Origin: a virus
DNA length: 64,000 bases
IMG/VR virus record: IMGVR_UViG_3300027987_000382
Location: 64,001-128,000 of that record
Strand: one strand, 5' to 3'
Below the pieces are notes generated by a model that saw only the letters and a list, made by a program, of their open reading frames with translations, was not told the origin of the DNA and did not search any database. This document shows positions 6,130 through 54,217 of the stretch, one piece after another; the stretch's first letter is position 1, and each line of letters opens with the position of its first letter. Made by a program: the position numbers and the translations under genes.

Positions 6130-7484
6130 TTCTTGGGCACCAGTCCGTGGGCGAGGCACACGGTCCTGATGTTCTCCATGTAGATGTTCACTGACCGGGT
6201 CGTAATCCCGAGAAACATCGCGATGTGATTCTTCTTCGGTCGGTCGTCACCAAATCGTTCTGAAAACTCGTCGTAGACATCGCCGATGCCGCATTGGATG
6301 TCGAAGATCTTTTGACAGTCACCTTCTGGCAGCGACTCTCGTACAGCGATCATCACGTCCGTGGCATCGATTGTTGCGATGTGATCGTCCTGGTCCATTT
6401 TCTGTGCTCCAACGGTCCTGAACGAGAGCTGGCTGATCGTGAAGCTGTCACTTTCATCATCGCTCCCGCTCTTGGTGTGGTTATCGAGAACCAGGACGTG
6501 TTCCGGCTTGGAGACGTACGCTTCTAGGTCTCCGGCATCCGCGTTTTCAACGACCTGAATCTCTGACGGATTGCAGAGGACTTCAATCCCAAGTCCTGTT
6601 GCTTTCTTCCGCAATACGGCAAGCTCGGCCGTGAGTTCAGGCGGTGTGAGGAGACCGACAACGTTGATGGTGTATCGTCCATTGGACGGGTTGTCAACGT
6701 GCGAGTAGTTGAAGTCACATTTGAGGCGTGACAGCTGACCGATGATCTCTTCCGTGATCACCTTGTCGGCACGTCCGACGATTTTCTGTGGCTCCTTGCG
6801 GTGCTCTTTTCGGACGTTCTCTGCAAGTTGCTGGCGGAAGTAGTTCCAGACGAATTCGCCGAAGAATTTGACGAGCTGGGTGTCGTCATTGATGATGTCG
6901 TTCGGGTTTTCGTACTTCTTCTCGCCTGGAATCCAGTCGATGGGCGATTCGCACTTTGGTGCTCGCTTCGTCTGGTCGAAGTATTTGTAGCTGTCCTGGA
7001 AGACGTCGAAGGTGACGTAGCTGCCGACTTCGAGGTCGGTGTCACCGGCGTCTGTCACGCGGACTTGCTTACAGTTGGGGCATTTGTCCGCTTGGCGGTT
7101 GATCTCGCGTGGGACGCCCTGTTGCGTGATCCAGGTGTCGGAGCCGCAAGCTCGGCAGTGGAAGGTGTACTTGCGGTGGTAGAATAGCTCGACGGTCCCC
7201 TTCCAGACCGCGATTTGGTACTCGATGTCGCCGCACTTCTTGTCGCTGGCGTAGTCGGCACCGATTGTGTTACCAAGCTCTTCGATGACACCTGCTCGGT
7301 GTCTGGCCATTCCAGGATGGGTGGCGACGTACTCCACGATGCTTTCGACGTGGAGCTTTTCATCTTCGGTCAGGTTCGCCATCGTTACATTGGCGAGTGA
7401 ACCCCTGAGATAGAGTTCGGGCATTTGGCGTACGAGGGCCATGAATTCCTCCGGTTGGGATAGTACGTCCTTGAAACGTTGCAC
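6126..7484 (-). CDS. sigma70-like transcription factor with Zn-ribbon insertion (putative)
   Basis: C-terminal region-4-like HTH (SLPEGDCQKIFDIQCGIG...KNHIAMFLGITTRSVNIYMENIR); region-2-like segments flank CRAC/CPNC pairs. Confidence 0.5.
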   Translation of the reverse strand: MQRFKDVLSQPEEFMALVRQMPELYLRGSLANVTMANLTEDEKLHVESIVEYVATHPGMARHRAGVIEELGNTIGADYASDKKCGDIEYQIAVWKGTVELFYHRKYTFHCRACGSDTWITQQGVPREINRQADKCPNCKQVRVTDAGDTDLEVGSYVTFDVFQDSYKYFDQTKRAPKCESPIDWIPGEKKYENPNDIINDDTQLVKFFGEFVWNYFRQQLAENVRKEHRKEPQKIVGRADKVITEEIIGQLSRLKCDFNYSHVDNPSNGRYTINVVGLLTPPELTAELAVLRKKATGLGIEVLCNPSEIQVVENADAGDLEAYVSKPEHVLVLDNHTKSGSDDESDSFTISQLSFRTVGAQKMDQDDHIATIDATDVMIAVRESLPEGDCQKIFDIQCGIGDVYDEFSERFGDDRPKKNHIAMFLGITTRSVNIYMENIRTVCLAHGLVPKN

Positions 7485-7570
7485 ATGTTGTAGTAATTAG
7501 TAGCACGTCCCGCGAATACATCCGTATTTGGGGGAGTACCTTCCGGTCGTCTTGTTACAAGGGGAACACG

Positions 7571-8350
7571 ATGAGTCAATATTGCGACAGCAAGGTTTTG
7601 GAACAGAACTGGTTCAACTGGCTGCTGTCTTCGTCCGTTCCGGAACTCGAGCCGTTCCGTAAGGCGGGAGTTTTGTGGACGAAAGTCGTGGGCACTGTTA
7701 GGCGGGATGACGGGACGGAAATCCTCCGTCACGGAGTGCCCTTGGCAGATCCATCGTACCCTACCAGAGCCCATTGCATTGCTTTGGGGCATCCGGTGTA
7801 CTTGAACAGTTACAATGGTGTTCCGCAGTCTGCTGGTACTGTCTTCATCGCCGGGGAGCCGACCCCCGTTACCTTGTTCGATCTCGTCAGCGAGCTGCAT
7901 CTCCTTTCGGACGCGTGGTTTCACAACCTCGGGAATCCACTGAGTCAACATGAGACCCTCCCGCACATCGAGGTCAATGGGTATATTCGGGAGGTGCCAG
8001 AAGAGGTATCTTGGCACGCGATCCTGGGCGACATCGACAAGATCTGCCAGGGGATCGCGATGAAGTTCAAGCAGCCGTCAGAAGAGGAGAGATTGGACTT
8101 GGCGAATGAAGCCCTACTCCAGGTCACCAACAAGCTTGTCAATCGCAAGCTTGTGTACACTCCGGGTAAGGCACCAGTCTTCAATCTTCTCACAACGACG
8201 ATCCACCGCTGTATGTATTCGATTATGAATCGGCGGACCAACAGAAGGCAGGGTCAAGCCAAGCTGCTAGAAGATGCCCAAGCAGGCATCCTGCCAGACT
8301 CACAACGGTCATTACGCACGCCGACGCGACGAACCATTAGATCACACTGA
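7571..8350 (+). CDS. T4 gp55-like (late) RNA polymerase sigma factor (putative)
   Basis: YCDSKVLE N-terminus and KICQGIA...DLANEALL...YTPGKAPVFNLLTTTIHRCMYSIM resemble the gp55/region-2 pattern; no region 4; GGGG RBS. Confidence 0.55.
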   Translation: MSQYCDSKVLEQNWFNWLLSSSVPELEPFRKAGVLWTKVVGTVRRDDGTEILRHGVPLADPSYPTRAHCIALGHPVYLNSYNGVPQSAGTVFIAGEPTPVTLFDLVSELHLLSDAWFHNLGNPLSQHETLPHIEVNGYIREVPEEVSWHAILGDIDKICQGIAMKFKQPSEEERLDLANEALLQVTNKLVNRKLVYTPGKAPVFNLLTTTIHRCMYSIMNRRTNRRQGQAKLLEDAQAGILPDSQRSLRTPTRRTIRSH

Positions 8351-8497
8351 AGGTTTCGTGTCAATACCGGATACAGAGCGTGCCATCTCCTTCAAATACA
8401 TCCGGAGTGTTTCTCTCGAACAACGTTGATCCCCTCTCGATGCTAGCACGTATTTGTACGTTAGGGAGCGAGATCACAAGTAAGCGAGATTCCTCCA

Positions 8498-8755
8498 ATG
8501 ACAGATCGAGCACCCACGGAGGGACAGCCACCAGCTGCGGTGAAAGAACTTCTGGCAGACCACCAGGAAGTCTTGGTCGTATTGCTTGACCCAGACACTA
8601 CCACTGAAGGCGAATCTACAATAGCATGTTTCATGAAGCTCGAAGAGAAAAGCCGATTGTCAGCTTACCTCCAAAAGCTTCTGCAGCAGTTATTGAAGAC
8701 AAGCAGTGCCAAATCAGGTGGTCACATCGCGACTCAAACCACAATTAGTCCGTAA
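8498..8755 (+). CDS. hypothetical protein
   Basis: 85-aa ORF downstream of a GTATT-containing intergenic region. Confidence 0.45.
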   Translation: MTDRAPTEGQPPAAVKELLADHQEVLVVLLDPDTTTEGESTIACFMKLEEKSRLSAYLQKLLQQLLKTSSAKSGGHIATQTTISP

Positions 8756-9689
8756 AAGGACTATCGTTCGAGTCCCCCCGACAGTTAAAGTTGTTGTCAA
8801 GAGCGTCGCCGGGGAGCCAAAAGTCGCAAGACCGGATCAGATCAAGCAATTGAAGCAGATCCGTATCCGCTCCAACAGTGCACAACAGCAAGCCTCCCCA
8901 CCGCCACAACAACGAGCAGTCCCACCACCGTCGAACGCCGTAGTTCAAGGCAGAAACAGACGAGGTATCAGGCGTGCGACTAAGGTCAAGTACATCACAC
9001 GTGGTGTCTCGCCAGAGTCAATCGCCAAAATAAACGCTCTCAGGAACGCCGGACGCGGGAAAATCCTGATCATAGTCGGAAACGGACCATCCATTAGCGA
9101 AGCACCTCTAGATAAGCTCCGCAATATCCGTAACATCGACACTCTTTCTATCAACAAGCCCGACGACCGGCTTTGGCCGACTTCTCACTGGGCATTCTTC
9201 GACGGTTCGCAAATGCGGAGACACGAAGCATTGTGGACCAGCTACGGTGGCTACATCTTTAATAGCACGGCCATCAAAAGGCAAAAAGAGAAGTCGATGC
9301 AATTCAAGAATCTTGGCGGGCACGGCTTCAGTCGCGACATGTCAAAGGGGCTTCACATCGGACGTTCCTCGGTTTACGCCTCTATGCAGATTGCTCTTTG
9401 GATGGCATACGAGCACATCTACATTTTCGGTTGCGACATGAACCCAGCAGGGCTGAACGGCAAACTACACTTCTACGGAGTGAATCCTGACGTCGATCCA
9501 CACAATCGTGCTGAACGATTCCAAAAGGAAGCTGAACACTACGATACGGCTGCCAAAGCACTTTCTCCAGAAGAGCGTGCGAAATTCACGTTCTGCACGG
9601 AGTACAACCCTTGGCAGTTCGTCGATTCGTTCAACAAGATGAGCCACAAGGATGTCAGTAAGATTCTGGAACACGCTGCGAAGCTGTAG
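8706..9689 (+). CDS. Maf/DUF115-like (CstII-related) glycosyltransferase with basic N-terminal extension
   Basis: IIVGNGPS, SSVYASMQIA, IYIFGCD and HFYG motifs; first ~110 aa are R/K/V/P/Q-rich. Confidence 0.7.
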   Translation: MPNQVVTSRLKPQLVRKRTIVRVPPTVKVVVKSVAGEPKVARPDQIKQLKQIRIRSNSAQQQASPPPQQRAVPPPSNAVVQGRNRRGIRRATKVKYITRGVSPESIAKINALRNAGRGKILIIVGNGPSISEAPLDKLRNIRNIDTLSINKPDDRLWPTSHWAFFDGSQMRRHEALWTSYGGYIFNSTAIKRQKEKSMQFKNLGGHGFSRDMSKGLHIGRSSVYASMQIALWMAYEHIYIFGCDMNPAGLNGKLHFYGVNPDVDPHNRAERFQKEAEHYDTAAKALSPEERAKFTFCTEYNPWQFVDSFNKMSHKDVSKILEHAAKL

Positions 9690-9699
9690 AACTACAGTC

Positions 9700-9727
9700 G
9701 CAACAATGCTCCGAGTTGTTGTATTGA
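9700..9727 (+). promoter_or_regulatory. bipartite promoter candidate GCAACAAT-N13-GTATTGA
   Basis: Both boxes and their spacing are identical to 39321-39348; intergenic, just upstream of ATG 9734. Confidence 0.6.
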
Positions 9728-9733
9728 AGTAGC

Positions 9734-10162
9734 ATGCGTGGTAGAATATATGTGGGCACTAGCCTTCGCAACGCGAAGAGAGCAAATGAGCTTCAACAGC
9801 GTTTCAGAGACGCTGGTTGCGAGATAACGTACGATTGGACTACGCACGGACAAGTATATACTGATGCGGAGCTAGAGGAGTTTGGAGTCGAAGAAGAACG
9901 CGGGGTTGAATCAGCCGACGTGTTCTTTATGGTGTTCCCGGCTCGTAACGGCTCGCATTGTGAGCTTGGTTTGGCACGAGGTTTTGGGGTAAAAATCGTC
10001 TTGTTGATCGAAGAAGAGCACGAGAAGAAGACGTTCTACTACTTACCGAAAATCGCGAACAGACCAGAGGTTTCGCGTTTCACCAACGAGGACGAAGCCG
10101 TTCAATTTACTCTTGATTTCCTGGATACCAAATATGAGCGGTGCAATTCTCAACCGGCTTGA
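9734..10162 (+). CDS. nucleoside 2'-deoxyribosyltransferase / nucleotide N-glycosidase family protein
   Basis: RIYVG, YDWT, ADVF, GSHCELGLA (putative nucleophile Glu). Confidence 0.75.
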   Translation: MRGRIYVGTSLRNAKRANELQQRFRDAGCEITYDWTTHGQVYTDAELEEFGVEEERGVESADVFFMVFPARNGSHCELGLARGFGVKIVLLIEEEHEKKTFYYLPKIANRPEVSRFTNEDEAVQFTLDFLDTKYERCNSQPA

Positions 10163-10844
10163 AATCGATGTCATGCAAGCAAACGAGCTTGTCGAAGCTT
10201 CCGAGCTTGCCTCAAAATACAAAATGCCAGCCCTCATAGTTCACCCGGATCTTGCCTCAGAGGCTCAGATCTATCGCGGTCGGACGAGAGGGAGGTACGC
10301 ACTGATCACGCCAATCGATTGGCCGAAAGGTGAGACGTTCGGGCAGAACAAACTTCGCGGCCTTTCAACTGACGCCCTCGACGCCGATGGTTTCGAGATT
10401 CTGTTGACTGGCGGCAAATCGGTGACAGATACCAGGAACGAGGCCAAATACCTCACAGAATTCCTGAAGCAGCATTTGTCAGAGACAATCGAGGTCAGGT
10501 TCGTCCTCGGCTCTAATATGCGTGATCACCAGAACGTCTTGCAGATGTGTGAAGCACTGCGTGGCGTCAGAACCCCAGCGTATGTCAGAAATGACACACA
10601 GCTCAAGTTGCAGGTTAGCAAGGCTAACCCAGACACTCACAATGCCTTGATGGAAGAAATCCGAAAGATAATCAAGGTTCCGATCAAGCTGAGTGGCAAC
10701 ATCACAGGCGTCAGGGCCATTACTTCATGCAATGATGCATCACGTTTTGCTGTCAATCTTCTGCAGGCCAAAAATGTGGTGAAAGAACTCCAACAGCAGC
10801 CTGAAGAATTACGGCAGCTGTTGGAGAGTCAAGATGCAACATGA
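10134..10844 (+). CDS. DeoC (deoxyribose-phosphate aldolase)-like TIM-barrel protein, divergent
   Basis: ALIVHP, ITPIDWPKG (cf. TVxxFPxG), DADGFE, PIKLSGNI (cf. KASGGIR); start moved to ATG 10134. Confidence 0.55.
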   Translation: MSGAILNRLEIDVMQANELVEASELASKYKMPALIVHPDLASEAQIYRGRTRGRYALITPIDWPKGETFGQNKLRGLSTDALDADGFEILLTGGKSVTDTRNEAKYLTEFLKQHLSETIEVRFVLGSNMRDHQNVLQMCEALRGVRTPAYVRNDTQLKLQVSKANPDTHNALMEEIRKIIKVPIKLSGNITGVRAITSCNDASRFAVNLLQAKNVVKELQQQPEELRQLLESQDAT

Positions 10845-11217
10845 GCATGTGATCTGTCCACATTGCGGTGGCAACATTGGATGGGAATTCGTCCGGGCGG
10901 ACATCGAAACACGATTGTCCGAAGGAATACCGGATGGTCCGTACCATTGTTATCATTGCGACAGGTCATTCACTCTTGTTTCAGACGGGAATTTGACGGT
11001 CGAAAATACTGGTAGAGTTAATCTGAAAGAAAGTCTCCCAGTATTAGAAAAAGGAACGACGGTACTACTAAACAATGAAGAACACCCTTGGCACAACGAA
11101 ATCGCTCTGATCTGTGATCGGAAGCACAAGTTCTACCGTCTGGAAATTCGTGGGAAGAGGCTTTGGGTACCGGAAGAATGGGTAAAAACCGATGAATCAC
11201 TTGCTGACTCAGATTAG
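10834..11217 (+). CDS. Zn-ribbon hypothetical protein
   Basis: CPHC...CYHC pairs plus a short beta-rich C-terminus. Confidence 0.65.
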   Translation: MQHEHVICPHCGGNIGWEFVRADIETRLSEGIPDGPYHCYHCDRSFTLVSDGNLTVENTGRVNLKESLPVLEKGTTVLLNNEEHPWHNEIALICDRKHKFYRLEIRGKRLWVPEEWVKTDESLADSD

Positions 11218-11578
11218 TGAGTTAGGCGAGGATGCTGATCTGCTCACAAGACATGATGATTGGCTTGAGACGCAACGGAATGCCCTACAAGGTGATCTTG
11301 AACAAAAGGCGACTGAACTAAGAGCCGTCCTTCTTGCTCAACGTATCAAAAGACTTCTGCAGCAAAAGAATCTGGTCGCTGTTCAGCACCTGATTCGCAG
11401 CAGCGAAGGCAAGGTCATCGACATCGTCATACGGATCATGAACCTGCCTGACGCACTTCAACATCTCCTCGAGAAGCCAGTCGACACCCTCGACGAAGTC
11501 AATGCCGCAGCTCAAGTCCACGGATGGGACCGAGACGGCTATGACATCCCCGGCTCGCAAGCTCTCCGCTCCGCATAA
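11192..11578 (+). CDS. hypothetical helical protein
   Basis: 128-aa ORF overlapping the upstream gene. Confidence 0.6.
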   Translation: MNHLLTQISELGEDADLLTRHDDWLETQRNALQGDLEQKATELRAVLLAQRIKRLLQQKNLVAVQHLIRSSEGKVIDIVIRIMNLPDALQHLLEKPVDTLDEVNAAAQVHGWDRDGYDIPGSQALRSA

Positions 11579-11656
11579 TTGCGTGTCATCTCCAGCTTCT
11601 GTTCCAGTATTGAACTGGCAGTCGTAGGAGAACCATCACGCCAAAGGAGAGCAGAG

Positions 11657-12826
11657 ATGCAAAGTCGTCGATTCAACGTCGTAACAGACGGCCAATGGGG
11701 TAGCTGTGGCAAGGGCCTCATCACCACCGCCCTCGCCGCTCGATACCGCCCCGAGATCATCTCGACGACAAACATGGCGAACGCCGGGCACACCGCCGTG
11801 CACGAGAACGGCGAAGACAAATTCGTCGCCAAAGCACTCCCATCAGCTGCGATTCTCCGCCAATGGATAGCCGGATACGACCCACACATCGTCGTCGGCT
11901 GCAGTGCGGCATTCACGATCGAGCAAATGCACGACGAAATCCAACTGACCGGATCAAACTACCAGCTCACGATCCACGAAAGAGCTGGTGTCATTACCGA
12001 AGCACACAAGGCCGCAGAAGGTAGCCTCGAGACCGGTACAAAGCACGTTGCCAGCACCATGCAAGGCTGTGGAGCATTCCTTGCCGACAAGATCATGCGA
12101 CGCAAAGATCTCAAGCTCGCTCGAGACTACCCAGAACTCAACAGCCACATGCCAGAGCATCTCGGCAAAAAGATCGACAACATCAACCCGGCAATCAGGG
12201 ACGCGGTCGCCGGAATGAGCCTACCACGTGCTCTCGCCACGCTGATGCACCTGTTCGACATCACAATTCTGCACGAAGGAGCCCAAGGATTCTCGCTGGA
12301 CATCAATCACGGCTCGCACTACCCACAGTGCACAAGTCGTAGCACCACGGCAATGCAGAACTTGGCTGACATGGGATTGAACCACACCCATGTCGGCGAC
12401 ATCTATCTTGTCATCAGACCGTTTCCGATCAGAGTGGGGAACGTCATCGAAGAAGGCAAGACTGTCGGCTACTCTGGTGATTGCTACGACGATCACGAAG
12501 AGACCACCTGGACCGAAGTTGCACAACAATGCAACGCACCGCCAGAAGTGATGCAGGGCGAACTGACCACGGTGACAAAGCGTCTACGACGCGTCTTCAC
12601 CTTCTCTGAAAAACAATTGCGAGAAGCTGTTGCCATCAATGGTGCAACAAAGATCGCCCTCAACTTCGCCAACTACATCGACTGGGCCTGCTACGGCACG
12701 AGTGAATATCGCGAGCTGCCGACGAAGGTCGTAGATTTCATCACTCGCATTGAGGATATCGCCGGTATTCCAGTCACCGTGGTTGGAACCGGTCCACACA
12801 ACGATCACGTCTGCTTCCTGAGTTAA
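11657..12826 (+). CDS. purZ: PurZ-type adenylosuccinate-synthetase homologue (N6-succino-2-amino-dAMP synthase candidate)
   Basis: GQWGSCGKG (Ser where PurA has catalytic Asp), NAGHT, EGAQG, FPIRVG, ELTTVTKRLRR, LNFANY; AAGGAG RBS before ATG 11657. Confidence 0.85.
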   Translation: MQSRRFNVVTDGQWGSCGKGLITTALAARYRPEIISTTNMANAGHTAVHENGEDKFVAKALPSAAILRQWIAGYDPHIVVGCSAAFTIEQMHDEIQLTGSNYQLTIHERAGVITEAHKAAEGSLETGTKHVASTMQGCGAFLADKIMRRKDLKLARDYPELNSHMPEHLGKKIDNINPAIRDAVAGMSLPRALATLMHLFDITILHEGAQGFSLDINHGSHYPQCTSRSTTAMQNLADMGLNHTHVGDIYLVIRPFPIRVGNVIEEGKTVGYSGDCYDDHEETTWTEVAQQCNAPPEVMQGELTTVTKRLRRVFTFSEKQLREAVAINGATKIALNFANYIDWACYGTSEYRELPTKVVDFITRIEDIAGIPVTVVGTGPHNDHVCFLS

Positions 12827-12911
12827 CAATGGCTACTTCCATTGTATATAGTGCGTGTTGGGCTGGCAAAATCCTCACGCATATCGAAACTCCGGGAGTA
12901 TTCGAGGTAGA

Positions 12912-13742
12912 ATGGGTGGAGAAACAGTACAATCTAGAAGTGGGCGAACGAGAGATACGCTCCGAGTCGCCGCTTATCTTGAAGAGGTTGGAGAAGACCC
13001 AGCAACCTCTTGTGGAAACCTATTAGAATTCAGGATTCCGTACGTTGCGTTGAAGCATGTCTGGACCGGGAACGTAGATTCTCTTCCCGACAACGCTTAC
13101 CAGCGGCTCCGCAAAACCATCTCAGAGCATGAGATGACGGTGGTTCTGATCGCTAGCGATCTCGGCAGCGATCCAGCCGATTCCCTCAGTAAAATCGGTG
13201 AATCACGGATCGATCACGTCTTCAATCTCGCCTCCTATTTCAAATCCCCGTTTGTCAGAATTGGTATTGGCACCGAATGTAGCCAGAAATGTGCCACTGC
13301 TATTGACGAATGGATGGCGAAGATCTCCACGAAGGCTATCAAGGCCAACGTGACGCCACTGCTCGAAATCACACACAACACTTATATCAACACGCCAAGT
13401 GGCGTCGCCAATCTACTGCTAAAACACAAGCGGTGGAAAATTCTCTACGATCCTGTCCAATTCATTCTACGACAGAATCAAGATCCGTTTGTGAAATACT
13501 GGACTCTGCTGAAGAACAGCGTTTCGGCTATCGATGTTCGCGATCTGAAGATAGGTAAAGGATTCAAGCCGTCTGGGTTTGGTAATTCCAGGATCGACTT
13601 AACGATTAAGGACGCTATCGGCAGCGGCTACCAGGGCTGGTACATAATGGAGCCGTCCCTCGGAAGGCGTCATGGCGACGCTCTGACGAAAAAGGACACG
13701 TTTAAAATGGCTCTCGACGCCTTTGATGCTATCATAGAATAG
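12912..13742 (+). CDS. xylose-isomerase-like TIM-barrel protein (sugar-phosphate isomerase/epimerase, AP-endonuclease-2 family)
   Basis: AAYLEEVG...VALKHVWTGNV N-terminus; LLE, ILYDP, IDVRD, G.G.ID and YIMEP motifs; GAGG RBS before ATG 12912. Confidence 0.7.
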   Translation: MGGETVQSRSGRTRDTLRVAAYLEEVGEDPATSCGNLLEFRIPYVALKHVWTGNVDSLPDNAYQRLRKTISEHEMTVVLIASDLGSDPADSLSKIGESRIDHVFNLASYFKSPFVRIGIGTECSQKCATAIDEWMAKISTKAIKANVTPLLEITHNTYINTPSGVANLLLKHKRWKILYDPVQFILRQNQDPFVKYWTLLKNSVSAIDVRDLKIGKGFKPSGFGNSRIDLTIKDAIGSGYQGWYIMEPSLGRRHGDALTKKDTFKMALDAFDAIIE

Positions 13743-13783
13743 TAATCAAAGTTATGGCGGGACATAGTACCCTGGAGTGACCC

Positions 13784-13999
13784 ATGGCTGTCAATGTCAA
13801 CGAGGCAATCGTAAAGATCAAAGAGGCCGGTTCATCAAACGTCCGAACCGTGCCGATGCCAGGCCAGAATGTCAATTCTGGCCAATACCAGATCGAAATC
13901 AATCAGGCTGGAACGTGGGTTCCAGTCGCAACGGGGATCAGCAAGAAAATCGCAGAGGACATTATCAGCCAGGCGACCAACAGGGTCATATTGGGATGA
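13784..13999 (+). CDS. hypothetical protein
   Basis: 71 aa, GGAG RBS. Confidence 0.7.
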   Translation: MAVNVNEAIVKIKEAGSSNVRTVPMPGQNVNSGQYQIEINQAGTWVPVATGISKKIAEDIISQATNRVILG

Positions 14000-14009
14000 G
14001 GTACCCAAA

Positions 14010-14459
14010 ATGGCTCGACGAAACAAAGAACGCATTTCGTCGGTCTTGGAGCTTTCCCGCTACAAGGTCGGCGAAACAGTCTGGTGGGTGATCCTTCGGA
14101 ACACAGAACCAGTTCCGGACATCTCTGAAGAAGACCGTTGGATGGAAAGCCACCATCCAAAGGCTCTCTACGAACGTGGTCCATACCAACGCTTGTGGAC
14201 CAGCAAAGCCATGCTTCCGAAGCTGCAGCATATGGACTTCGGGATGATGGTGTCGCTCCTCACCGCAGAATTCAAAGTTGAACCGTTCACCATCGTAGAA
14301 GTCGTTCGCAGCAGAGACACAGCCGAATTCTTCTACTCGAACGCCGATGACGAATGGATGCCAGAATCAAGCCTCTTCTGCACCGACATCGCGGCCCGTC
14401 GTGAACGAAATCGCATTATGAGGCTCATTAAAAAGTGGGCAACCAGCCAGTCCACTTAG
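14010..14459 (+). CDS. hypothetical protein
   Basis: GAGG RBS before ATG 14010; in frame with ORF 13869..14459. Confidence 0.65.
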   Translation: MARRNKERISSVLELSRYKVGETVWWVILRNTEPVPDISEEDRWMESHHPKALYERGPYQRLWTSKAMLPKLQHMDFGMMVSLLTAEFKVEPFTIVEVVRSRDTAEFFYSNADDEWMPESSLFCTDIAARRERNRIMRLIKKWATSQST

Positions 14460-14464
14460 GCGGC

Positions 14465-15154
14465 ATGATGAAGATATACGCCGATGGATCAGATCCAGAC
14501 GAAATGGTGGCATTGACCGAAAACCGCACAATCTCCGGTTTCACCACCAACCCTACCCTCATGCGGAAAGCAGGAATCACCGATTACGAACAATTCGCCA
14601 AACAAGTCCTACAGCGAATCCCGCACCACCCAATCTCATTCGAAGTTTTCGCCGACGACCATTCAGAAATGGAACGGCAAGCACATAAGCTAGCCTCCTT
14701 CGGCGATAACGTGTTCGTTAAAATCCCAATCACCAACACAAAAGGCGAGACGACCACCCACTTGATCAAACGGCTCCTGGACTCAGGAATCAAAGTCAAC
14801 GTCACAGCAGTTCTAAGCAGCCGACAAATTAACGAAGTGACGCACTTCCTAGCGAGCGAAACCAGAGCCATTCTCTCTGTCTTCGCAGGACGAATCGCCG
14901 ATTCAGGTGTCGACCCAAAGCCCCTCATCAAAGAAGCTCTTGGACTAGCAGCTCCCAACGTCGAAGTTCTTTGGGCGAGCTGCAGAGAGATCTACAACGT
15001 GTACGAAGCCGATTCTATCGGTTGTCACATCATCACCGTCCCCAACAATCTGATTCCAAAATTGGCGTTACGTGATAAAGATCTGGATGAATTCTCTCTC
15101 GAGACTGTCAAGATGTTCTACGACGACGCCGAGAGCAGCGGATTCGTTTTATGA
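14465..15154 (+). CDS. tal: transaldolase (small TalC/FSA family)
   Basis: GFTTNPTL, VFVKIP (Schiff-base Lys), VNVTAV, SVFAGRI, LWASCR. Confidence 0.93.
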   Translation: MMKIYADGSDPDEMVALTENRTISGFTTNPTLMRKAGITDYEQFAKQVLQRIPHHPISFEVFADDHSEMERQAHKLASFGDNVFVKIPITNTKGETTTHLIKRLLDSGIKVNVTAVLSSRQINEVTHFLASETRAILSVFAGRIADSGVDPKPLIKEALGLAAPNVEVLWASCREIYNVYEADSIGCHIITVPNNLIPKLALRDKDLDEFSLETVKMFYDDAESSGFVL

Positions 15155-16116
15155 TCCTGACCAGAACGCCATTTCGCATCACCCTTGGTGGCGGCGGCAC
15201 AGACATACCCTCATATTACCAGCACAACGGTGGGCTGGTATTGTCGATGGCGATCGACAAATACGTCTACATCACCCTCAAGCCAGATGCCTTTGAACAT
15301 CTCTGCAAAGTCCGATACTCGGAAATCGAGATCGTCGACAACCTCTCTGATCTGAAAAACACAAGAGCCAGAGAAGCACTCATAGCTCATGATCTCCTAG
15401 CAGTCGAGATCAATACTTGTGCCGATCTCAACCACAGATCTGGCCTCGGCTCATCCGGCTCTTTCCTGGTCGGCCTATTGAAAGCGATCAGAGAGTACAA
15501 GCAACTTGATAGCTCTCCACACACAATAGCCGACGAAGCTTGCACAATTGAAATCGAAAGACTCAATGAACCGGTCGGCAAACAGGATCAATATATTGCT
15601 GCCTTTGGCGGCGTCAAGATTTTGAAGATCTCCAAAAGTGGTTCCGTCGAAGTAAGTCCGCTCGAGATTGATCATGCTGCTCTAATCCAGAACATGCACA
15701 TCTACTCGTTGGGCGTCTACCGCGATGCGTCCAGTGTTCTGGCAACTCAACAGAAGATGGGCGGCACCACCAAACAAACGCTCGACACGATCATGGAGTT
15801 TGGAGAGAGGACGATCGAACTTCTGTCGTCTTCAGAATTCGACGAATATGGCCGTCTACTTGATGCTTATTGGACCGAAAAGAAAAAGCTTTCCAACAAG
15901 GTGTCGATCCCTATCGTAGACAAGATCTACGAAGAGGTAAAGGGATTCGGTGTCCTTGGTGGCAAAATAATTGGTGCTGGCGGAGGAGGGTTCTTGCTGT
16001 TATATATAAATCGAAGGCACGCTGAACTTGAACAATTCATGGCGAGCCGGGGTCTGCGGAGACTGCGGTACGAAGCAGACTTCACAGGCAGCAAGATCCT
16101 AGGAAATTTCTTATGA
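15151..16116 (+). CDS. hddA: GHMP kinase, D-glycero-alpha-D-manno-heptose-7-phosphate kinase-like
   Basis: PFRITLGGGGTD, SGLGSSG, GKQDQY, KIIGAGGGGF. Confidence 0.85.
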   Translation: MILTRTPFRITLGGGGTDIPSYYQHNGGLVLSMAIDKYVYITLKPDAFEHLCKVRYSEIEIVDNLSDLKNTRAREALIAHDLLAVEINTCADLNHRSGLGSSGSFLVGLLKAIREYKQLDSSPHTIADEACTIEIERLNEPVGKQDQYIAAFGGVKILKISKSGSVEVSPLEIDHAALIQNMHIYSLGVYRDASSVLATQQKMGGTTKQTLDTIMEFGERTIELLSSSEFDEYGRLLDAYWTEKKKLSNKVSIPIVDKIYEEVKGFGVLGGKIIGAGGGGFLLLYINRRHAELEQFMASRGLRRLRYEADFTGSKILGNFL

Positions 16117-16997
16117 AGATTCTCGTGACAGGCGGCCGTGGTTTTATCGGCACCCACTTGGTACGAAGATTGACGCAGCAACACTCCGTGCGAGTCATCG
16201 ACAATCTCTCATCAGCCAGCCTACCAAAGGTGCGAGACGTCGAATATCATTGCTACGACATCCGAAATTTCGATGATATCGAACCCTTGTTCGCCGGTGT
16301 CGACGGCGTCTTTCACCTCGCGGCAGAGGCAAGAATCCAAGCAGCAATCGACGATCCAAGAAACACCGCCGAAATTAATATCCTCGGCACCGTCAACGTT
16401 CTGGAAGCGTGCAGGATCAACAATGTCCCAAGAATTATCAATTCAAGCACCTCGGCGATTTACGGTCTAACCGATCAATTTCCAACTTCTGAAGACGTGA
16501 AACCTGATTGCCTCAACCCGTACGCCTCTAGCAAGCTCGCCGCAGAGGAGATGGTGCGATGTTACTCAAGTCTTTACGGCATCAAGTCTCTCAACCTCAG
16601 ATACTTCAACGTCTTTGGGGAAGAATGTCCCGTCACTGGCCCATACTCGCTCGTCGTCGGTCTGTTCTTACAACAACGTAGCAATGGCGAAAGCTTAACC
16701 ATTGTCGGAACCGGCGAGAGCAGGCGTGATTTCGTCCATGTTGGCGATGTTGTCGACGCCAACATCAGAGCAATGAGCTGCAAACTAGAAAAGAGTGGGG
16801 AGCAGGTCAATATTGGCTCTGGGAGTAATATATCGGTTCTGGACGTAGCAAAAGCGATATCGGACAATATGGTCTTCGTCGAACCACGGCCAGGGGAAGC
16901 CAAAGAGACCTTAGCGGACGTATCACGAGCAAAAGAATGGCTAGGCTGGGAGCCGAAAGTCAACCTTTTGGACTGGCTTCAAAGAAGCAGTCATTGA
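16113..16997 (+). CDS. NAD-dependent nucleotide-sugar epimerase/dehydratase
   Basis: TGGRGFIG, HLAA, YASSK, LRYFNVFG, RDFVHV. Confidence 0.92.
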   Translation: MKILVTGGRGFIGTHLVRRLTQQHSVRVIDNLSSASLPKVRDVEYHCYDIRNFDDIEPLFAGVDGVFHLAAEARIQAAIDDPRNTAEINILGTVNVLEACRINNVPRIINSSTSAIYGLTDQFPTSEDVKPDCLNPYASSKLAAEEMVRCYSSLYGIKSLNLRYFNVFGEECPVTGPYSLVVGLFLQQRSNGESLTIVGTGESRRDFVHVGDVVDANIRAMSCKLEKSGEQVNIGSGSNISVLDVAKAISDNMVFVEPRPGEAKETLADVSRAKEWLGWEPKVNLLDWLQRSSH

Positions 16998-17586
16998 TGT
17001 TGGCCATTCCAATAAAGCGATAGCCCTTCTCAGCCATATACTCGATCATCCTCTTCTTGCGGTAATCGAGTGATGAAGTCTCAACTCTGATGAATCTTGG
17101 CGGATTCTTAGCGAAGTCGAGCCCATTCATGGCTTCGTATTCATAGCCTTCCACGTCCAGGGACAAAAGGTCGATACGATCAATACCGTGCTGGTCGATA
17201 ATCGACTGCAGAGTTCTAGCCGGTACGTGAACGACAGTCGGCTTCACCGCTTTCTCCTCAGCGGCCGTCCTCTGATGGACATCGTAATAATCGAGCGGAA
17301 TTGTGATCTGCCCGACAAGACTGTCATCGATCCCTATTTCTGCGAAATTCCCCGGAATTGTTGCTTCGCTATAATCGAAAGCCACTAATGCACAGTGTTC
17401 GAAGATATTCTTGGATGAGCGATTGGCTTGACATTCTGAGAGCCGTTGTTTGTTTGGTTCAATCAGCAATCCATGCCAACCCATCATTTCTAAACGAATA
17501 GTGTTAGATTGGGCGAGGCCGTTATTCGCACCGGCCTCGATGTAGAAACCATTGTTGAAGTCCAGAAATTCATCCATGTAATTCAC
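16960..17586 (-). CDS. FkbM-family methyltransferase
   Basis: FYIEAGANNG, GWHGLLIEP, IDLLSLDVEGYE. Confidence 0.9.
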   Translation of the reverse strand: MNYMDEFLDFNNGFYIEAGANNGLAQSNTIRLEMMGWHGLLIEPNKQRLSECQANRSSKNIFEHCALVAFDYSEATIPGNFAEIGIDDSLVGQITIPLDYYDVHQRTAAEEKAVKPTVVHVPARTLQSIIDQHGIDRIDLLSLDVEGYEYEAMNGLDFAKNPPRFIRVETSSLDYRKKRMIEYMAEKGYRFIGMANINDCFFEASPKG

Positions 17587-50269: not shown

Positions 50270-50732
50270 TTGTACCTCCAAGTTCAGCAGATTCCAGCTC
50301 CCAATGATGCGGAAGGTCTATCCATCGTTGATCGCCAGCAGCATTGTTAGCGTTCAACCGATGAGTCAGCCCGCAAGCCTCATCTTCTACCTCAAGCACA
50401 GATACAAGGGAGCTTTCATACTGAAATCTGGCTTCTACGTGCTGGTCGGCACATGGATTCACAACGACAAAGAATTATTGCTCCTACGAGAATTCAGTGG
50501 AGATCCAGACGAAGAATGCGTTTATGTCGATGTTGCTGAGAACATGACCGAGCCAGGACAAGACCAATCCAAGCAACAATACCAGCTCAGAGTTGAGTTC
50601 GAAAACGGCGATATCAAGGAAGGCAACCAAGAGTTCATCGACACAAACGTAGACATCAAATTCCACAAAGATGGGATCTGCCACGATTTCAAGTTCATTC
50701 GCAAAGAGATGGCAGCCGTATGCCTGACCTAA
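50262..50732 (+). CDS. protein with an N-terminal fragment homologous to T4-like major capsid protein gp23
   Basis: PMMRKVYPSLIASSIVSVQPMSQPASLIFYL resembles gp23 MVRRAIPNLIAFDICGVQPMNSPTGQVFAL; the rest is unrelated and far too short for an MCP. Confidence 0.7.
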   Translation: MSNCTSKFSRFQLPMMRKVYPSLIASSIVSVQPMSQPASLIFYLKHRYKGAFILKSGFYVLVGTWIHNDKELLLLREFSGDPDEECVYVDVAENMTEPGQDQSKQQYQLRVEFENGDIKEGNQEFIDTNVDIKFHKDGICHDFKFIRKEMAAVCLT

Positions 50733-53073: not shown

Positions 53074-53363
53074 TGTGCACTGTCTTCCATCTGATGGACT
53101 TCGACAAAGTTGAACGCTACAACCTTGTCGTAAAGCCCGGACCGTTCTCTGCCGACTCGTGGGAATTGCAAGACGAAGTCGGCAGACCGGTCCGAGAAAT
53201 GGTATCCTACGCCATGTCATCCGATGCTGTATCTGAGGAGCATCAAGTCGTACTTAAACGGAAGGACGACAGCCTCCTCAAACTAGCACTAGTCGGAGTC
53301 AGTTCATGGCGGAATTCGCAAAGCAGCTCGAAGCCCTCAGATGGAAGCGGTTCTCCGCCCTAG
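53073..53363 (+). CDS. hypothetical protein
   Basis: 96 aa, TAATG-coupled. Confidence 0.5.
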   Translation: MCTVFHLMDFDKVERYNLVVKPGPFSADSWELQDEVGRPVREMVSYAMSSDAVSEEHQVVLKRKDDSLLKLALVGVSSWRNSQSSSKPSDGSGSPP

Positions 53364-54217
53364 GCACCGGCGAGGTCTGTCTCGTTGACGTCATGGGCGA
53401 TGACAGTGCAATCGTCCAAGCAGCCCGAGTCAGCTACGGCGAAGGAACCAAAAAGGTCTCTGACGATCGCACGCTAATCCGCTATCTCATGCGGCACCGG
53501 CATACGACCCCGTTCGAAATGTGCGAGGTCAAACTCCGAGTCAGAGTACCGATGGACTGCTGGCGGCAATGGATTCGCCACCGCACAGCCAACGTCAATG
53601 AATACAGCACTCGCTACAGCGTCGCCATCGACGACTGTCAAATCACCAGCCCGACAGAATGGCGGTCACAAGCCACAACCAACCGCCAAGGCTCCGGCGA
53701 CTTTCTCAATGAGGAAATCGGCCTCGGCCTCACATTGGCCGAGACAGAACTACAAAAGCAAGCCCGCGATGTCTATCAAAACAGACTCGATGCTGGCGTC
53801 GCTCGAGAACAAGCTCGCAAAGATCTTCCGCTTAGCACTTTCACTGAAGCGTACTGGAAGGTCGATCTCCACAACATGTTCCACTTCCTCTCTCTCCGCA
53901 TGGATTCTCATGCACAGAAAGAGATTCGAGAATACGCGACCATCATCGGCAAACAAATCATCAAACCACTCTACCCACTCGCGTGGGAGGCATTCGAAGA
54001 CTACCGTCTCGGTGCTATGTTCCTATCACGGCTGGATATTGGCGTCATCCAGCGGCTTAACGAAATGGCACGCTCCGAACGCGGCTACACAGAACCGGAC
54101 TTTATCGTCGCTCAAGATTCCAGCTGGAAAGAACTTGAGCGTTGTCGTGAACGAGACGAGTGCTTCGAAAAGCTCGCTCGCCTCGGTATCATAGAAGTAC
54201 CAATCATCGCTGCGTGA
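53306..54217 (+). CDS. thyX: flavin-dependent thymidylate synthase
   Basis: AARVSY, HTTPFE, RHRTANVNEYSTRY, REQAR..LP, HAQ.EIR. Confidence 0.96.
   Translation: MAEFAKQLEALRWKRFSALGTGEVCLVDVMGDDSAIVQAARVSYGEGTKKVSDDRTLIRYLMRHRHTTPFEMCEVKLRVRVPMDCWRQWIRHRTANVNEYSTRYSVAIDDCQITSPTEWRSQATTNRQGSGDFLNEEIGLGLTLAETELQKQARDVYQNRLDAGVAREQARKDLPLSTFTEAYWKVDLHNMFHFLSLRMDSHAQKEIREYATIIGKQIIKPLYPLAWEAFEDYRLGAMFLSRLDIGVIQRLNEMARSERGYTEPDFIVAQDSSWKELERCRERDECFEKLARLGIIEVPIIAA

Follow-up and report, generated by a model that had tools for sequence, protein, structure and literature searches.

Can a giant phage build its DNA with 2-aminoadenine (Z) in place of adenine and, if so, by what route might adenine be kept out? 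The question is raised by a purZ-type gene in a 64,000-nt stretch of viral DNA (the window), which covers positions 64001–128000 of the IMG/VR record IMGVR_UViG_3300027987_000382 (G000). Coordinates are those of the window unless they carry a G000, G001 or L number. To our knowledge, Z-DNA in nature has been demonstrated only for small sipho- and podoviruses that encode either DatZ/MazZ or DutZ/DmtZ helper proteins and, usually, a dedicated family-A polymerase. One published account likewise describes the characterized Z phages as small sipho- and podoviruses (PMC8599892), and a 2026 survey of NCBI viruses distinguishes seven groups whose helpers are DatZ/MazZ or DutZ/DmtZ (PMC12884076). Relative to the literature covered, the giant-phage context of PurZ is new: work on PurZ or 2-aminoadenine in connection with jumbo, huge or mega phages does not describe this lineage (Tong et al. 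2023, PMID 37308591, lies outside that coverage). We argue below that the observations are best explained overall by a functional ATP-dependent PurZ, by Z replacing much or all of the adenine, and by disposal of deoxyadenosine monophosphate (dAMP) through a nucleoside deoxyribosyltransferase (NDT)-like enzyme and an aldolase-like enzyme, a combination that we consider moderately probable.

The purZ gene and its active site

The predicted protein contains the motifs GQWGSCGKG (residues 12–20; nt 11690–11716), FPIRVG (residues 256–261), TTVTKRLRR (residues 304–312) and LNFANY (residues 335–340, with NFAN at nt 12662–12673), each where a preliminary description of this DNA had placed it in proposing an ATP-type PurZ. 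A longer frame could open at a TTG at position 11579, but this is not the purZ start because the related proteins begin at the same Met as the shorter frame. The protein belongs to the adenylosuccinate synthetase family (Pfam PF00709, E = 4.7e-37), and the phage family that it fits best is PHROG 1211, '2-aminooxy adenylosuccinate synthetase' (E = 1e-58). Among solved structures it matches the PurZ enzymes of S-2L (7ODX, E = 3.7e-34) and phiVC8 (6FM1, E = 9e-34), and the archaeal short PurA of Pyrococcus horikoshii (2D7U/5K7X, 6e-35) scores level with them; the match to Escherichia coli PurA is far weaker (1e-18). Judged by sequence, the similarity to the family is homology, and chance is excluded.

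We aligned the window PurZ with PurA from E.coli and Thermococci, with PurZ0 from phages Wayne and Ghobes and with PurZ from phiVC8, SH-Ab 15497 and S-2L. The catalytic residues common to the whole family are retained (N42, H45, T134, R148, Q210, T226 and R311, the counterparts of N38, H41, T129, R143, Q224, T239 and R305 in E.coli PurA). At the positions that tell PurZ from PurA, the enzyme has the PurZ state. Ser16 stands for the catalytic Asp13 of E.coli PurA and equals Ser14 of phiVC8 PurZ, Trp14 is aromatic like phiVC8 Phe12, and Thr304 corresponds to phiVC8 Thr262. Phe337 and Tyr340 correspond to phiVC8 Phe295 and Tyr298, as in an ATP-type loop, and Asn339 occupies the position of the GTP-specific Asp (Asp333 of PurA) that is kept in both PurA and PurZ0. 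Trp14, Ser16 and Thr304 agree with a published residue list for PurZ, and Pro257, Tyr277 and Trp285 match residues that separate enzymes on dZ contigs from those on dA contigs in the same work (bioRxiv 10.1101/2025.10.22.683976). The LNFANY loop is invariant in the giant-phage clade and identical, letter for letter, to that of the characterized SH-Ab 15497 PurZ. Among the ∼270 homologues retrieved, all those whose N-terminus is intact have Ser at the Asp13 position.

The three characterized PurZ enzymes share with the window PurZ not only the Ser at Asp13, the TTVTK motif and the NF(A/C)(N/Q)Y loop, but also an insertion after PIRVGN. Their sequence identity to it is only 31–34%, however, and unlike them the window PurZ retains a segment at its C-terminus that can be aligned with archaeal PurA. 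It resembles the archaeal short PurA of the Thermococci (2D7U/5K7X) in its length class and in aligning through the C-terminus. The archaeal enzyme differs in having Asp13, GTVTGRRRR and a T-M-L-D loop. The PurZ0 enzymes of Wayne (an Arthrobacter phage) and Ghobes (a Gordonia phage) have the Ser-type site as well, but they are 27–28% identical to the window PurZ and keep the GTP-type Asp (LTMLDQ and LSFADQ).

Homologues P0121, P0122, P0126, P0131, P0140, P0142, P0164 and P0182, which are 730–1200 aa long, harbor LAGLIDADG inteins, one or two apiece, at sites close to the P-loop and EGAQG regions; another homologue, P0234, is fused at its N-terminus to an HNH endonuclease. Inteins typically interrupt indispensable genes, and we therefore count their presence in the purZ genes of several relatives in favor of a functional PurZ.

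Phylogeny

The preliminary description had proposed a tree of PurA, PurZ0 and PurZ as a check on its assignment. Our tree comprises 58 sequences (IQ-TREE, LG+C20+F+G4 with posterior mean site frequencies) and is rooted on bacterial PurA; it samples Thermococci PurA, PurZ0 and PurZ references, representatives of the clusters found in a search of 1.8 billion proteins, and members of the giant-phage clade. All Ser-type enzymes form one clade (support 100/100) whose sister group is the Thermococci PurA, and in which PurZ0 is an early branch. The window PurZ lies further in, within a crown clade of 46 rows (100/97) that also contains the S-2L, phiVC8 and SH-Ab enzymes and that divides into the characterized PurZ group (100/100) and a group of 24 rows holding the window PurZ (99/98); the giant-phage clade is nested in the latter with support of 97/98. 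The same topology is obtained with FastTree (162 rows) and with a quick IQ-TREE run. The window enzyme thus falls with PurZ and apart from PurA, and residues and phylogeny together bear out its assignment as an ATP-type PurZ. In this tree of sequences it is bracketed by two biochemically characterized groups that use deoxyguanosine monophosphate (dGMP), namely PurZ0 and PurZ. The enzyme probably carries out PurZ chemistry, which would convert dGMP, aspartate and ATP to dSMP, the nucleotide N6-succino-2-amino-2'-deoxyadenylate.

One cultured phage of larger size also encodes such a protein. MaF61, a Flavobacterium myovirus of 168 kb (PQ858689), has a Ser-type PurZ-like protein with an NF-x-N-Y loop and a large insertion (L007:5983–7326); its gene is flanked by those for scaffold and terminase and goes unmentioned in the paper describing the phage. 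The protein falls in the 24-row group of the window PurZ, which makes MaF61 the closest isolate.

A conserved block of genes around purZ

In related genomes purZ is embedded in a block with the order MptE-like gene, NDT-like gene, aldolase-like gene, zinc-ribbon gene (in part of the clade), small-protein gene, purZ and a gene for a xylose-isomerase-like triosephosphate isomerase (TIM) barrel (Table 1). All 13 loci retrieved with PurZ show this order, and so do all 19 retrieved with the aldolase-like gene. The succession NDT-like gene, aldolase-like gene, purZ holds at PurZ identities of 53–79%, and with aldolase-like proteins that have diverged to 37% identity (37–44%). The NDT-like gene lies 1–2.4 kb upstream of purZ in the related genomes, and the TIM-barrel gene is kept in most related loci, although its PDB matches are only weak (AsbF, E = 0.006). 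The MptE/Maf-like gene may belong with glycan genes instead of with nucleotide metabolism. A scan of positions 7000–17500 for promoters and terminators gave counts near those expected from shuffled sequence and was uninformative.

Table 1. Genes and sites discussed in the text (prefixed positions lie outside the window)
Feature	Position	Strand	Remarks
MptE/Maf-like protein	8706..9689	+	conserved, upstream of NDT-like gene
NDT-superfamily gene (nucleoside deoxyribosyltransferase/nucleoside monophosphate N-glycosidase-like), 142 aa	9734..10162	+	assigned from profile, fold and invariant residues
Deoxyribose-5-phosphate-aldolase-like TIM barrel, 223 aa	10173..10844	+	assigned from predicted fold only
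Small zinc-ribbon protein	10834..11217	+	found here in some clade members
Conserved 128-aa protein	11192..11578	+	immediately upstream of purZ; matches no family
Shine–Dalgarno-like AAGGAG	11644..11649	+	7 nt ahead of purZ ATG
purZ-type gene, 389 aa	11657..12826	+	stop-free open reading frame (ORF), PF00709 and PHROG matches, PurZ residues, tree
Xylose-isomerase-like TIM-barrel protein	12960..13742	+	directly downstream of purZ; ORF opens at 12855, homology from ∼residue 36
Transaldolase, GHMP-type sugar kinase, nucleotide-sugar epimerase	14435-16997		after the purZ block
Gp23 family match, first short piece	50277-50426
Gp23 family match, second short piece	G000:128532-128630		just past the window
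Thymidylate synthase	53306-54217		followed by dUTPase homologue
dUTPase homologue, 216 aa	54225-54875		∼90-aa N-terminal extension
DnaE/PolA-like replication genes	G000:42419-46468, G000:21144-21890	-	upstream of the window
Nudix gene	G000:57836-58363	-
General HD-domain protein, 196 aa	G001:305502-305876	+	adjoins DnaE in G001

In one related locus the purZ slot, between the small-protein gene and the TIM-barrel gene, is filled by a Ser-type PurZ of another lineage (L136:7409–8629). This enzyme is 31% identical to the window PurZ and has the motifs GSSGKG, TSVTKKVRR and LNFMNF. Because the slot has been refilled with a Ser-type PurZ from elsewhere, the block appears to need PurZ function and not merely to have inherited the gene.

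The NDT-like and aldolase-like proteins

The NDT-like protein has a Tyr (Y6) and a GSHxELGxA motif with a Glu (E77) that are both invariant in the clade, and so has the Tyr and nucleophile Glu expected of the superfamily. Its profile matches the CMP N-glycosidases BlsM and MilB (∼1e-5) and NDTs. In Foldseek searches its AlphaFold2 model, with a predicted local distance difference test (pLDDT) score of 85, likewise resembles NDTs, BcmB/MilB and DNPH1. A member of the same superfamily is known from the PurZ0 phages, where DmtZ acts as a dAMP N-glycosidase and deoxyribose 5-phosphate (dR5P) transferase (PMC12884076). DmtZ and the NDT-like protein share their structural relatives (DNPH1, MilB and NDTs) and the conserved Tyr and nucleophile Glu (PMC12884076), and both are encoded near a PurZ gene. 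The PurZ0 phages Wayne and Ghobes are thus like the present lineage in combining a Ser-type site with an NDT-superfamily enzyme and in lacking DatZ and MazZ (PMC12884076).

The aldolase-like protein has no sequence match in Pfam (PF01791 included), NCBIfam or the PDB. Its predicted model (pLDDT 79, predicted TM-score 0.75) finds almost only deoxyribose-5-phosphate aldolases (DERA/DeoC) in Foldseek (E = 3e-9, TM 0.71–0.74), and it aligns weakly with a Thermococcus DeoC-family protein in hhalign (E = 0.054). The predicted fold is like that of DERA, as is the register of motifs in strands 1, 2 and 4, but the strand-4 Lys of DERA is an Arg here; Lys145 and Lys172, in late strands, are invariant. 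The family comprises 262 proteins, has been seen only in this phage lineage, and is in many cases encoded on contigs matching the PurZ-bearing ones in length. Homologues of the NDT-like and aldolase-like proteins are found neither in the characterized Z phages nor in MaF61.

A possible route to Z-DNA

On the reading that we prefer, PurZ would condense dGMP with aspartate, using ATP, to give dSMP, which host PurB and host kinases would convert to dZTP. PurB is absent from most Z phages. The clade does not encode it either, except in one record, and the host enzyme must therefore be assumed. A DnaE-type phage replicase would then incorporate dZTP, so that the phage DNA would carry Z for much or all of its adenine. 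For the exclusion of adenine, the NDT-like enzyme would release adenine from dAMP and leave dR5P, and the aldolase-like enzyme would split dR5P into glyceraldehyde 3-phosphate and acetaldehyde; because it removes dR5P, the proposed second step would make the disposal irreversible. The pair would in this way stand in for the missing DatZ and MazZ.

These parts differ in how firmly they can be held. Z-DNA is plausible in this lineage given the enzyme's sequence, and we lean slightly toward the presence of Z in virion DNA. A role for the NDT-like/aldolase-like pair in adenine exclusion is put forward tentatively. The complete scenario, in which a lineage of ∼350–440-kb phages with a T4-type capsid and a DnaE replicase builds Z-DNA and excludes adenine by a previously undescribed route of NDT N-glycosidase and phage-specific aldolase, is doubtful as a whole.

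Evidence against a Z genome and alternative explanations

A number of observations weigh against the proposed route, and we set them out with the alternatives that draw on them. The NDT-like and aldolase-like genes might be unrelated to Z and lie near purZ by descent, degrading dCMP, dUMP or host-derived deoxynucleoside monophosphates for salvage or host shut-off; this is a serious possibility, if short of probable. Among solved proteins, those closest to the NDT-like protein are CMP and hydroxymethyl-CMP N-glycosidases, which act on CMP. Nor is there a sequence link to the DmtZ-bearing phages: the NDT-like profile finds nothing among the genes of Wayne and Ghobes, hhalign comparisons with Ghobes gp51 and gp52 are negative, and orthology with DmtZ is not borne out. 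The NDT-like protein has no detectable sequence similarity to DmtZ and is neither fused to nor paired with DutZ, and no homologues of DutZ or DmtZ, the partners of PurZ0, are detectable in this lineage. The co-occurrence evidence comes entirely from one lineage, and block synteny within it may reflect common descent instead of joint function. Against this alternative, the gene order persists at 37–44% identity of the aldolase-like protein and across the replacement of purZ by that of another lineage, and NDT-family enzymes have been independently associated with Z phages (PMC12884076; bioRxiv 10.1101/2025.10.22.683976).

A second alternative accepts an active PurZ but supposes that substitution is partial, or that dZ nucleotides serve another purpose, so that adenine and Z coexist and dATP is not removed. 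We think this unlikely, although the search for the usual helpers speaks for it. The preliminary description had pointed to datZ, mazZ and dpoZ as genes to look for, and all three are missing, also from the complete relative G001. DatZ-type HD proteins (PF12917 and PF13023, with the general HD, YfbR-like and HD_3 families) are absent from 5–10 clade records that include G001, and MazZ/DUF550/DUF5664 (PF04447 and PF18909) and MazG (PF03819) are absent from the record and up to nine relatives, again including G001. A tblastn search with the family-A polymerase DpoZ of SH-Ab finds nothing in the record or in up to nine relatives, G001 among them. These negatives are meaningful because the positive controls worked: the same searches detect DatZ in phiVC8, S-2L and SH-Ab 15497, and MazZ in S-2L and SH-Ab. 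The sole HD exception is the general HD-domain protein of G001 (Table 1), a candidate nucleotide hydrolase.

Neither in G001 nor in the 41% of the genome that the record covers is an enzyme converting dATP to dAMP recognized. Two proteins of the contig were considered for such a role and dropped. The Nudix protein, a possible dATP pyrophosphohydrolase, resembles GDP-mannose mannosyl hydrolase. The Dut homologue, considered as a DutZ-like dATP/dGTPase, passes the NCBI equivalog cut-off for dUTP diphosphatase and is encoded beside thymidylate synthase; that it is 34% identical to Ghobes gp55 has no diagnostic value.

Restriction sites provide a further view of the same point. GCGC does not occur in the 146,839 bp of the record, against ∼390 occurrences expected from trinucleotides and ∼660 from base composition, and in most relatives (L009–L018), too, no tetramer is more depleted. 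The hexamers CCCGGG, CCGCGG, GCCGGC and GGGCCC are likewise absent from the whole record, and depletion affects four of the five hexamer palindromes made of G and C only, compared with four of the 46 that contain A or T (Fisher p = 0.0013). This mostly G/C-only purging fits protection of A-containing sites, as weak and circumstantial evidence, but it would be explained equally well if the restriction enzymes of the host favored G/C-rich sites. Moreover, several A/T-containing sites are also strongly avoided (AGGCCT and GAGCTC with no occurrence, GGATCC with 4 against 30 expected), which suggests that protection does not reach every A-containing site, as partial substitution would have it. On the other side, replacement is complete in all characterized PurZ phages (PMC12884076), ∼59% of this genome is unseen, and the gap could be filled by the NDT-like/aldolase-like pair, with further uncharacterized proteins flanking purZ.

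Third, the PurZ scaffold might have shifted to another substrate, a ribonucleotide or a different 6-oxopurine nucleotide, with the block making or salvaging some other modified purine. The curated PurZ model NF038379 (NCBIfam) is the top model for the window protein, but its score of 215 bits lies below the cut-off of 300, and the archaeal-type PurA model follows closely with 199.5 bits; the protein is for these reasons best described as a divergent member of PurZ. In E.coli PurA, Arg303 contacts aspartate and the ribose of IMP. This position is Arg in 120 of 120 clade members, as in PurA, the archaeal short PurA included, whereas it is Lys or Leu in the characterized PurZ and PurZ0 enzymes (SH-Ab, phiVC8 and S-2L among them). 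Because the clade keeps this PurA-like Arg, its sugar or substrate specificity could differ from that of characterized PurZ. The neighborhood of purZ is shared with no characterized Z phage, and the TIM-barrel gene directly downstream is unexplained. Even so, we regard a shifted substrate as improbable: all residues so far tied to recognition of dGMP's 2-amino group and to ATP use are present, and the clade is bracketed by the dGMP-using PurZ0 and PurZ (our tree; PMC12884076).

Finally, an ordinary PurA that boosts AMP synthesis as an auxiliary metabolic gene is close to refuted, for despite membership in PF00709 and a solved archaeal PurA that scores as high as solved PurZ, the enzyme has Ser for the essential Asp13 and Asn for the GTP-specificity Asp, and the tree places it, at 100/100, in the Ser-type clade and outside the PurA of Thermococci and bacteria.

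If the lineage does use Z, as proposed here, the modification would extend to giant phages, and a DnaE-type (C-family) polymerase would be able to copy ZTGC DNA as a natural replicator. N-glycosidase plus aldolase would be a third independent solution to adenine exclusion and a source of new enzymes for Z-containing or other non-canonical DNA, and a widespread environmental group of giant phages would be partly invisible to restriction-based methods. If instead the lineage is without Z, then active-site signatures of the PurZ type are not in themselves enough to predict Z in a genome, a failure that would bear on thousands of homology-based predictions in the literature.

Genome and lineage

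The record is a linear contig with a CheckV completeness of 41%, from which we put the full genome at ∼350 kb. More than 120 metagenomic proteins are 59–82% identical to the window PurZ, on contigs of up to 438,712 bp, and 13 related IMG/VR loci were obtained, among them that of G001, a complete genome of 355,825 bp with direct terminal repeats. The suggestion that the DNA comes from a jumbo phage therefore stands. In a collection of isolate phages the best PurZ matches are only 31–35% identical and, MaF61 excepted, belong to genomes of 38–83 kb. SH-Ab, phiVC8 and S-2L fall in this size range, in contrast to the ∼350-kb genome with a DnaE replicase described here, in which purZ has no DatZ, MazZ or DpoZ neighbors.

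The lineage had also been called T4-like, which holds for the capsid and fails for replication. A Gp23-type (T4-type) capsid gene is present in eight of 10 lineage records (1e-78). The replicase is a DnaE (Pol III alpha) whose coding sequence is split into separate pieces. All five genomes checked also keep a small, divergent PolA-like ORF (∼400–445 aa), and no family-B polymerase is found in the lineage. In the present record the Gp23 family matches two short pieces ∼14 kb apart, whereas relatives carry one full-length Gp23-type gene (E ∼1e-78); the capsid gene here may be split, interrupted or very divergent.

The purZ block is followed in the window by a transaldolase, a GHMP-type sugar kinase and a nucleotide-sugar epimerase. 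In relatives, neither these glycan genes nor the Nudix gene, which lies upstream of the window, is syntenic with purZ. Some relatives (G002) hold both the extended type of dUTPase seen here and a canonical short dUTPase.

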